A stretch of 63,857 bases of DNA, filler included. It is 13 parts of 13 records of this genome, joined end to end, with 100 filler letters (N's around TTAATTAATTAA, not from the genome) between each part and the next. Parts side by side here need not be neighbours in the genome. Positions count along the whole stretch, not along the records: positions 15,971 to 18,389 come from SRR11831586_1855; 12 more parts are not named here. The stretch is one strand, 5' to 3'. A program made the translations under genes and the position numbers. The notes under the pieces were generated by a model. That model worked only from the letters and a program-made list of their open reading frames with translations, did not search any database and was not told where the DNA came from. Shown one piece after another: positions 15,971-18,489 of this stretch. The first letter of the stretch is position 1. Each line of letters starts with the position of its first letter.

Positions 15971-16360
15971 GTCCGAGAGACACTCCACTGAGGCCTTGAC
16001 TAAGTTCGCCTCCAGTTCGGAGTCGAGGGTGGAGCAGTCCGCGTCGGAGGTGGACTCCGGCGGTAGCCAACCCTGGTATGGAGTGGCCGTGAGGTCCACT
16101 CGAAGCCCCTCCGAGATGGTGGACAGGACCCAAGACGAAGCTCCCACCGCTCGCCACTCCTCTACGTGAAGGCGTAGGCGGCCCCCCACAGGGGTCGGGT
16201 GGGGCTCGGGGACCCGATAAGAGGGTGCCGAAGGCTCTGGGGTGGGCGAGCCGGGGCTCGTGGGTGCCTGGTGGGGAGGAGGCGGTTCTGTACAGGGCAG
16301 ACTGTCCCGTCCTAGTGGGTGCACAGGATCCGTAGGGACCTGGGTACAGGGGTGGGCCAT
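15971..16360 (-). CDS. N-terminus of the pol (RT/RNase H)-like ORF, truncated
   Basis: PVGGRL..W..S.WVL.TI.EG motif at about 16192-16090; frame has no stop from 16636 to the contig end. Confidence 0.7.
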
Positions 16361-16412
16361 AGTAAGAGTCGAACACAGGGTGTTTATTGACTCCGACGTA
16401 GCCCACGTGGCC

Positions 16413-18287
16413 CTAGGGCAGCTGCTTTTTATCGGCCGGCTTCGTGAACTTAGGCTTCTGGCGAGGAGCCGGGTCCGCCGAACGCTGGCGCTTCGCTGCG
16501 TTAGCCTGGTGGGCGGGGGGGTGTACGTACAAGGACGCCGCCTTCTTCCAACGCGCCAACTCCTCGTAGGAGACGACGGGGTTGGGCAGGATACCAGAAG
16601 GGCGCGGGATGGGGGGCAACTCGGCCCACTGCTTGGTCAGGATACCCCGACACAACACCCGCATACGCTCTACCGTAGCGTGGTAGTGAGCGTGAGAAAG
16701 GGACCACAGCTGCTCCAACTTGTCCACAAAGGGAGCCAAGTGGTCAGCTGCGCCCGTAGGGAGGCCCTGCCACAGCAGGGACAGCGTAGACCAAGCCTGG
16801 TGCTGCATGGCCAAGGCGTCCACCTGGCGTTGAAGGGACCAGTGAAGTTCCATTGCCGTGTAGCGCGCGGGCGCGTTGGTCGCGAGGATCTCTTCCACGT
16901 TGTGCCCGTAGCCGGGCACGGCGAGGTCGAGGTCCGCCATAGCGGCCTCGCTGCTCTTGGCAGTATGCGTCAAGAAGTCCAGTCGCGAGGACGTGGGCTT
17001 CAGCGCAGAGGGTGCCAGGAGGCGGTCGCGGAACGTCCCCACCAGGGGGGACGTGTTCACGCGGCGTGCGAACGCATCGGCCGCGCTGTGGGCCGCGGAG
17101 TGCTGGCGCTCAAGGGCCGCCAAGCGGGCCACGAGCGCAGCAAAGTCCGGGTCCACAGCCGGGGCCGGGGAAGACGGGGGGAGGACGGACGCGGTAGGTG
17201 GTGCACCGGCCTGCGGGGGGCCCGCGCGCGCCCCGAGGGACGCCGCGGGAGACTCCCCCCGAGGGGTGGGCCTGCCCGCGTCCTCGCGGGAGGACGCGAC
17301 AACAACCTCCTCCGTCGTCTCGGCGCGAAGCGCCTGTTCCAGGGCGTCAGCCGCGTAGCCAGACACGACGAGGGCCCGTGCCACGTGACGGGCTGACGCC
17401 TGGGGGGGGACCGCAACGTCGAACGTGCGGGCGGCGTCGAGGAGGTCCTGCGCCGTGAGGTGTGCCATGAGGCGCTCCACCAAGACATCGTCGATGTTTG
17501 GGGAGATAGGGGCGCGGGTGCCGACGGGGTCACCACGCGCGGGGGCGTCCAGCGGGAGCGCTATCTCTTGTCGAACCCGTGGGAAGACAGAGGGTTCTGC
17601 GAGGGCCCACGCGAACTCCAACTCGGGAGAGGAGGCGGGGAGACGCAGACCGAGGCGGGCGGCGAAAGACCAAAGGGAACCGCCGGCCTTGGCGAGGAGC
17701 CACTCAGCGGCGCCCTGGCGCTGCACGAGGCGAGGGGTGTTGGCCTGTAGGAAGGCGGCAGCGGACTGCGCGCGGCCCGCGCGGACGAGGGCGACCGCAA
17801 TGTCCTGGGGCTCCGTGAAGAGCACGTCCAACCCGGCTGCCTGGGCGGCTTCGAAGAGTGGGCCCGGCTTCGCCGAGGTCAAGGCGAGGAGAGCGCCCAC
17901 CTGGGAAGCGTCGATGAGCGAATGTTGAAGATGATCCGGCCCAACGGCCTCCGCACGAGGATGGTGGCGTCGGGGAAGGACGGGAACCACCGGGGGCACG
18001 TTTGCAGGCGGCACCGCGGCGGGGGGCGGGCGGGATTCGGGTGGATCAATAAAATCAGGTAGATCCGTCACGGGAGCGTTGAGGTCAGCGTCGGAAACGA
18101 CCGTAATACGCGGCGTAACGGTAGTGGAGACGTCGGAAGTCGAAATCGGGCGGGGATTAGAAGATGATCCCGAAATTACCCTGCCGCTCGCGCGGGAAAC
18201 CACCGGGCGTTGAGTAGAGCGTTGGGGAGACTGCGGAGGAGAGCCTGGGCCCGAGCGAGGGGAGAGATTGCCGAAGGATTCAGACAT
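16413..18287 (-). CDS. Gag-like ORF1 of the DIRS-like element (624 aa)
   Basis: Long ORF with S/P-rich N-terminus, helical repeats, coiled-coil segment (FAALVARLAALERQ) and basic C-terminus, directly upstream of the pol-like frame. Confidence 0.65.
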   Translation of the reverse strand: MSESFGNLSPRSGPGSPPQSPQRSTQRPVVSRASGRVISGSSSNPRPISTSDVSTTVTPRITVVSDADLNAPVTDLPDFIDPPESRPPPAAVPPANVPPVVPVLPRRHHPRAEAVGPDHLQHSLIDASQVGALLALTSAKPGPLFEAAQAAGLDVLFTEPQDIAVALVRAGRAQSAAAFLQANTPRLVQRQGAAEWLLAKAGGSLWSFAARLGLRLPASSPELEFAWALAEPSVFPRVRQEIALPLDAPARGDPVGTRAPISPNIDDVLVERLMAHLTAQDLLDAARTFDVAVPPQASARHVARALVVSGYAADALEQALRAETTEEVVVASSREDAGRPTPRGESPAASLGARAGPPQAGAPPTASVLPPSSPAPAVDPDFAALVARLAALERQHSAAHSAADAFARRVNTSPLVGTFRDRLLAPSALKPTSSRLDFLTHTAKSSEAAMADLDLAVPGYGHNVEEILATNAPARYTAMELHWSLQRQVDALAMQHQAWSTLSLLWQGLPTGAADHLAPFVDKLEQLWSLSHAHYHATVERMRVLCRGILTKQWAELPPIPRPSGILPNPVVSYEELARWKKAASLYVHPPAHQANAAKRQRSADPAPRQKPKFTKPADKKQLP

Positions 18288-18489
18288 TCTACAAATTGAG
18301 AGTTGAAAAACGTAAAACGAGTAAACAACGAACGCGAAAAGCGGAGCGAAGTGTTACGAGCGCCGAACGGGTCAGCGCAAAGAAAGGTGNNNNNNNNNNN
18401 NNNNNNNNNNNNNNNNNNNNNNNNNNNNNNNNNTTAATTAATTAANNNNNNNNNNNNNNNNNNNNNNNNNNNNNNNNNNNNNNNNNNNN

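Follow-up and report, generated by a model that had tools for sequence, protein, structure and literature searches.

Gene content of the focal contig

The stretch of DNA analyzed here (the window, 63,857 nucleotides) is made up of 13 contigs, whose joints are runs of N with a TTAATTAATTAA linker. Our subject is a single 2419-bp contig at 15971-18389 (the focal contig), which has N runs at either side and which a preliminary description of the sequence had taken for the 5′ half of a probable new retrotransposon of the DIRS type. All of its features lie on the minus strand, and they are listed here from the 5′ end.

18288..18389, minus strand: 5′ leader of 102 nucleotides (nt), cut by the contig end; pyrimidine-rich and of lower guanine-cytosine (GC) content, from reading of the sequence
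16413..18287, minus strand: open reading frame 1 (ORF1), 624 amino acids (aa), gag-like by position; from the ATG at 18287 to a TAG stop
16361..16412, minus strand: spacer of 52 nt separating the stop of ORF1 from the ATG of ORF2, from a frame scan
15971..16360, minus strand: start of ORF2 (pol), 130 aa, open at the contig end, from the ORF listing
15983..16225, minus strand: block preceding the reverse transcriptase (pre-RT block), ORF2 residues 46-126, from phmmer, BLASTP and alignment

Both frames announced in the preliminary description are present, the 624-aa ORF and, behind it, a frame encoding a quoted peptide; ORF2 contains PTPVGGRLRLHVEEWRAVGASSWVLSTISEGLRVDL exactly as it was given there. 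ORF2 opens with a Pro-rich N-terminus, which is followed by the conserved pre-RT block. The contig had also been called intronless and more GC-rich than its neighbours. Both ORFs are indeed continuous, and the meaning of the first term is limited to that. The second holds, with a GC content of 0.666 for the focal contig against 0.50-0.576 for the remaining 12 contigs; 1-kb windows within it reach 0.646 and 0.723.

The longest open frame of the contig spans 646 codons. When the contig was shuffled 500 times with its dinucleotides preserved, the longest open frame had a mean of 243 codons (standard deviation 54, maximum 472), and none of the 500 shuffles attained 646. The long frame is therefore not a by-product of GC richness. 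Both frames are intact across all 754 codons available. According to the frame scan, the frame of ORF2 is open already from 16636 and covers the final 74 codons of ORF1 in the +1 frame, and translation of ORF2 may start either at its own ATG or by frameshifting. In this the contig differs from DIRS1-like elements: ORF1 and pol need not overlap, since they are separated by a gap of 52 nt and pol has its own ATG.

Some smaller features of the contig were also recorded. Past its TAG stop, the frame of ORF1 runs on without a further stop, beside the frame of ORF2, over the 147 codons that remain before the contig ends (15972-16412, minus strand); no relative matched it in a tblastn search of the window, and its openness is probably an effect of GC richness. 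The opposite strand carries an ORF of 384 aa. In the leader, a pyrimidine tract (18288-18330, minus strand) ending in ...TTTGTAG abuts the ATG of ORF1 and, judged by its letters, looks like a splice-acceptor-type signal, in cis or in trans. Repeats longer than 26 nt were not found within the focal contig. The leader has no inverted or direct repeat partner inside it, and hence cannot be called an inverted terminal repeat (ITR) or an A1 repeat.

Relatives of ORF2 and ORF1

Residues 50-130 of ORF2 were compared with 1.84 billion protein representatives in a full HMMER (phmmer) pass. This returned 54 matches at E≤1e-3, five of them at E≤1e-10. The best relative, P0001 (698 aa), matched at its N-terminus with an E-value of 7.1e-19 and 56% identity, and pairwise BLASTP of ORF2 with the same protein gave 46 identical residues out of 81 (57%, E 9e-28). 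It is the last 81 residues of ORF2 that match the N-termini of proteins of about 700 aa. The consensus of the block is GGRL..W..WVL..G..P.Q..PPE..E.EA...K..VE, and an alignment of 11 sequences shows no variation at its residues R, W, W, G, P and Q.

The relatives showed what follows such a block. In a Pfam scan of ten long relatives, RVT_1 was found directly after the block in every one (E 6e-18 to 1e-26). In the eight whose match begins at profile position 1-2, the domain starts 15-31 residues past the block, so that the RT domain of the present element should start just beyond the contig end. RT_RNaseH-type matches were present in four of the ten, and Dam (PF05869) at E≤1e-3 in three, with only P0006 passing the curated cut-off; no protease or integrase family was found in any. 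A motif scan covered 12 matches of at least 600 aa, from which the repeat protein P0002 was excluded. A YxDD motif stood about 198 aa past the block in all 12, DLFA[ST] was found in ten, and xPPx about 40 aa later in nine.

In the literature, which we cite here and below from the parts of each paper available to us, the pol of DIRS elements consists of RT, RNase H (RH) and a Dam-like methyltransferase (MT), and Ngaro is described as being without MT (PMC3783388, PMC9210276, PMC3266345). The RT-RH-MT architecture of the relatives is thus the one that these papers ascribe to DIRS pols but not to Ngaro. The preliminary description had placed a GGRL...W...WVL block upstream of the RT of such pols, and this was borne out: the block stands at the N-termini of RT-RH-(Dam-like MT) proteins, and it was seen again in the pol of a complete element, L001, which we describe below.

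Other searches contributed little. A word-indexed protein search found no relative for the whole of ORF1 nor for the 130-aa ORF2, and Pfam gave nothing significant in ORF1 or ORF2 (best E 0.29 and 0.1). With ten pol relatives as tblastn queries against the window, only 15971-16309 matched. Two of the strong phmmer matches were rejected as pol relatives. P0002 (2739 aa) was matched in 12 stretches and P0005 (547 aa) in 9, both being internally repetitive and matched to query residues ~26-64; in such matches, summed repeat scores can inflate significance. Eukaryote clusters proposed for ORF2 by the ESM Atlas at 0.92 were too weak for use.

L001 was found by scanning metagenome contigs with the pol block. 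The contig scans employed a pol-block alignment of three sequences, and among the metagenome contigs they gave 81 pattern matches, of which two were confirmed, one of them L001; L002 is a decayed copy of an element near-identical to L001. Neither the pol block nor the ORF1 family found a relative when genome contigs and viral contigs were scanned. L001 is a metagenomic contig of 5432 bp and represents a complete DIRS1-like element, the group of which DIRS-1 of Dictyostelium is the founding member (PMC9210276, PMC3266345). Its ITRs are 175 nt long and 98% complementary, and an internal segment of 48 nt has its complement at the beginning of the left repeat. ORF1 of L001 (447 aa) is without a Pfam match. 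Its pol (772 aa) carries the block as PVGGRL...WVLSTIKEGY, followed by RVT_1 and RNase H, and an ORF overlapping pol has a weak match to Phage_integrase (E 1.3e-3, below the cut-off). Six tandem copies spaced by 34 bp were observed at L001 5114-5419, just outside the right repeat.

The ORF2 fragment of the window matched the pol of L001 with 45% identity over 38 aa (E 3e-10). P0001 proved collinear with the same pol over 674 aa (31% identity, E 6e-89), and this collinearity spans RT, RNase H and the MT-like region. The focal contig resembles L001 in having a gag-like ORF followed by pol, and the pre-RT block is common to both. It differs in that its ORF1 is longer (624 vs 447 aa) and unrelated in sequence; L001 is moreover an animal-type element, and the pol identity amounts to only ~30-45%. 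Through P0001 and L001, the membership of the DIRS family claimed in the preliminary description finds support as regards order and lineage, its peptide having matched P0001 and the pol of L001 at the E-values given above. A terminal inverted repeat and an internal complementary region, which had also been named there as features of interest, were not found within the focal contig, and both are present in the relative L001.

The Pro/Ser-rich N-terminal third of ORF1 is predicted to be disordered; its middle and C-terminal regions are predicted to be helical and are followed by a basic tail. The empty word search with the whole of ORF1 was probably due to low-complexity words crowding the candidates, as the less repetitive residues 385-600 alone gave two relatives. 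These are P0056 (651 aa, E 6.5e-60, 53% identity) and P0057 (644 aa, E 2e-43), the values referring to the restricted query; in full-length alignments the identities were 40% and 37%, respectively. Neither protein has Pfam domains. For P0056 as for P0001, the longest contig on record measures 4962 bp, which leaves room for both genes, and this suggests that the two are the same ORF1-pol pair in a relative. P0057 is encoded on a contig of 2992 bp.

An AlphaFold2 (AF2) model of ORF1, made from a three-sequence alignment, was all-helical. Its mean predicted local distance difference test score (pLDDT) was 49.7 and its predicted template modelling score (pTM) 0.26, and only residues ~125-325 reached a pLDDT of 72-87. 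At E≤1e-3, Foldseek matched the model to nothing in PDB or BFVD. The features predicted for ORF1, namely a disordered N-terminus rich in Pro and Ser, long helices and a basic tail, would be compatible with an RNA-binding, self-associating protein. For the C-terminus, the ESM Atlas pointed to clusters of flexivirus capsids at 0.91, sharing no more than 141-145 features, and to a Basidiomycota-rich cluster at 0.90; both were too weak for use.

Judging from its homologues, ORF1 is a real, conserved, element-associated protein and no recognizable cellular gene. The preliminary description had allowed that the 624-aa ORF might turn out to be such a gene, and this was not so, ORF1 having no Pfam match and its relatives likewise being without domains. 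It had further spoken of an intact, highly divergent gag. ORF1 is intact, has two relatives and lacks similarity to any known Gag; the name gag applies by position only. This is also how the gag-like ORFs of DIRS and VIPER elements are defined, and they are highly divergent (PMC6681497). The new small ORF1 family, with three members of which none has a known fold, could help in the study of the DIRS 'Gag'.

Classification of the element and alternative explanations

In view of these relationships, the focal contig very probably represents the 5′ part of a retrotransposon that belongs to the order DIRS and, within it, to the MT-bearing DIRS1-like/PAT-like lineage, and that comes from a GC-rich eukaryote. 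The element is a new representative of a known kind of mobile element, a GC-rich and apparently intact one of the MT-bearing DIRS lineage. With a GC-rich microbial eukaryote as its host, the element would be in keeping with the green-algal members of the PAT-like group.

On this classification, the contig would carry a short leader followed by an intact gag-like ORF1 and by the initial 130 codons of pol, stopping approximately 20 codons short of the RT domain; RT, RH, MT, the tyrosine recombinase (YR) and the repeats would follow downstream, past the contig end. By analogy with characterized DIRS elements, transcription of a full copy would run from one end to the other; the ORF1 protein may bind or package the RNA, from which pol (RT-RNase H-MT) would make a DNA copy. 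The DNA would then be closed into a circle, aided by the terminal and internal repeats, and the circle would be inserted into the genome by the downstream tyrosine recombinase, without target-site duplication.

The order of the ORFs is also common to PAT-like elements (Pat, kangaroo), which are intermingled with DIRS-like ones in RT/RH trees; the two are separated mainly by their terminal repeats, PAT having split direct repeats of the form A1...B1-A2-B2 (PMC6681497). DIRS-like elements are marked by ITRs together with an internal complementary region. Ngaro-like elements are likewise YR retrotransposons with gag and then RT/RH, and they have split direct repeats. However, they are without an MT domain (PMC9210276, PMC3783388), whereas the relatives of the focal fragment carry an MT block, which argues against a Ngaro-like element. 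VIPER and TATE belong to the order DIRS as well, and also have a highly divergent gag-like ORF1 without recognizable domains (PMC6681497). Their ORFs are tabulated in the order gag-like, YR, RT/RH (PMC6681497), whereas in the focal contig gag is followed by the pre-RT part of pol. The VIPER-like superfamily (VIPER, TATE) is described as restricted to kinetoplastids, and the available main text of the same paper uses the word 'methyltransferase' only once, in a general background sentence (PMC6681497). A VIPER/TATE reading, considered on account of the kinetoplastid-like look of the neighbouring eukaryote contigs, was ruled out by the gene order, with the pre-RT pol after ORF1, and by the MT domain in the relatives.

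Several observations weigh against the assignment to an MT-bearing DIRS lineage. By tblastn, neither RT, RNase H, MT nor recombinase was detected on the contig or elsewhere in the window, and the recombinase ORF and ORF1 of L001 likewise had no tblastn match in the window. The likeness to a DIRS-type pol was found for the pre-RT region only, as matched to P0001. The tyrosine recombinase, the enzyme that defines the order and stands in place of a DDE integrase or endonuclease, is also unseen for the closest relatives, which are known as proteins only. Neither a terminal repeat nor an internal complementary region was recognizable on the focal contig, whose sequence upstream of ORF1 is limited to 102 nt. 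The Dam-like domain exceeds Pfam's own threshold in only one of the ten relatives scanned. The link between P0056 and P0001 consists of equal values of 4962 bp, and not of one contig on which both were seen. Finally, ORF1 has no similarity to ORF1 of L001 (best E 0.76), which fits the published divergence of DIRS/VIPER gag-like ORFs (PMC6681497), and no match to Pfam, to PDB sequences in a profile search, or to any fold; 'gag-like' therefore describes only its position upstream of pol and its size.

Alternative explanations have to be weighed against this evidence. It is possible, though in our view rather doubtful, that the contig represents a dead or 5′-only remnant, with RT, RH, MT and YR missing or decayed in the source genome; this would be compatible with the DIRS class. 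Only the 5′ 2.4 kb are present, no other piece of the element lies in the window, and most copies of YR retrotransposons are incomplete or degenerate in the genomes surveyed (PMC3783388, PMC6681497). Against a remnant, both frames are intact over the 754 codons available, and ORF1 has the full length of its relatives (624 vs 651 and 644 aa). Moreover, the contig ends are assembly breaks and not element ends, so that the truncation is uninformative on the genomic copy. A different retroelement with the same pre-RT block, either Ngaro-like or with RT-RH-MT and no tyrosine recombinase, is quite improbable. The recombinase was seen neither for the focal copy nor for any close protein relative, and the block may also occur in Ngaro-like or other retroelements. 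However, the relatives contain a Dam-like MT block (three of ten by Pfam, ten of 12 by motif), which the literature cited above describes for DIRS and not for Ngaro; the pol of L001, with which P0001 aligns over its whole length, belongs to an element with ITRs, an internal complementary region and a recombinase-like ORF; and a protease or integrase family was found in 0 of 10 relatives.

That no mobile element is present at all, and the frames are due to chance in GC-rich DNA or to an ordinary pair of cellular genes, has a negligible probability. GC-rich DNA does yield long frames, as the 384-aa ORF on the opposite strand illustrates, and ORF1 is without a recognized domain. In contrast, no shuffle reached 646 codons, ORF1 and ORF2 have relatives at E-values of 6.5e-60 and 7.1e-19, and every long relative of ORF2 that was scanned is a reverse transcriptase. 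The homologies of ORF1 and ORF2 have effectively refuted a non-mobile origin already. The DIRS retrotransposon stays the preferred interpretation.

Composition of the window and the host of the element

The assembly represented in the window is mixed: it contains E. coli, a eukaryote rich in CA repeats, and the focal contig, which has a third dinucleotide signature. Six contigs are from E. coli (95-100% identity): 1-15870, 18490-21545, 27618-36629, 38862-48013, 54609-56701 and 61542-63857. Within the first of these, the stretch 13000-15870 was matched in 5426 of 5426 complete E. coli genomes, with a top identity of 100%. Six others had no E. coli match (21646-27517, 36730-38761, 48114-50367, 50468-54508, 56802-58893 and 58994-61441), and they look eukaryotic, with long uninterrupted ORFs and CA-rich repeats. 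This eukaryote may be kinetoplastid-like. The focal contig had no match among the 5,426 E. coli genomes. The preliminary description was silent on the focal contig being foreign to its neighbours, both E. coli and the other eukaryote.

In order to compare the focal contig with its neighbours, we used dinucleotide distances (×1e-3). Among the six eukaryote contigs, the distance of any one to the pool of the remaining five is 33-94. For the focal contig, the distances are 143-238 to the individual eukaryote contigs, 206 to their pool and 177 to the pooled E. coli contigs. Its CA/TG value is 0.91, compared with 1.16-1.45 in the six eukaryote contigs. Among synonymous codons, it prefers the C-ending CTC, TCC and GTC, whereas the eukaryote contigs prefer CTG, GTG and AGC/TCG. 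The high GC content of the focal contig is mostly explained by its being nearly all coding and rich in Ala, Pro and Arg, and the GC content at third codon positions (GC3) of ORF1, 0.77, is inside the range of 0.62-0.83 for the ORFs of the other eukaryote.

The focal contig is not E. coli and, by its dinucleotide signature, probably not from the CA-rich eukaryote either. Composition thus inclines us, with some reserve, to see in it a third source in the assembly. The competing view, that the element resides in the CA-repeat-rich eukaryote of the six contigs and that there is no third contaminant, we consider unlikely. The common assembly speaks for it, and so does the GC3 of ORF1, which falls within the eukaryote's range. 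The dinucleotide signature stands apart (143-238 vs 33-94), which is suggestive only, as a transposon can keep its own signature, and the synonymous codon choice is C-ending rather than G-ending.

A more far-reaching version of residence would make the contig the front half of an intact, currently mobile and undescribed DIRS lineage, residing in the CA-repeat-rich, intron-poor protist of the window. Such a lineage would be defined by the conserved ORF1 of 620-650 aa, so far in three unannotated assemblies. We regard this version as improbable. From kinetoplastids, only VIPER/TATE are described in the available parts of the literature (PMC6681497; PMC12278014). If the version were true, and if the protist were a kinetoplastid, which is a guess, the element would be the first of the gag-RT/RH/MT type of DIRS in kinetoplastids. 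A third source of the assembly remains our preferred origin of the focal contig.

The eukaryote contigs carry the following features.

22468-23913 and 25309-26097, same strand: two WD40 proteins, on the contig 21646-27517
56840-57673: protein with Ephrin_rec_like cysteine repeats
59539-60609: TPR_12 protein
38563-38760: oxoprolinase fragment
27400-27515 and 38441-38528: CA-rich repeats

Rfam gave nothing on the focal contig at E≤1, nor on the window at gathering scores. In the E. coli part of the window, the best E. coli records cover the stretch 13000-15870 in two pieces over ~4.3 kb. IS4 is annotated between glgP and yzgL in those records, whereas the window contig is contiguous there; the IS4 insertion is therefore absent from the window contig. 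As a consequence of the mixed sources of the assembly, an annotation in prokaryote style would mislabel seven of the 13 contigs of the window.

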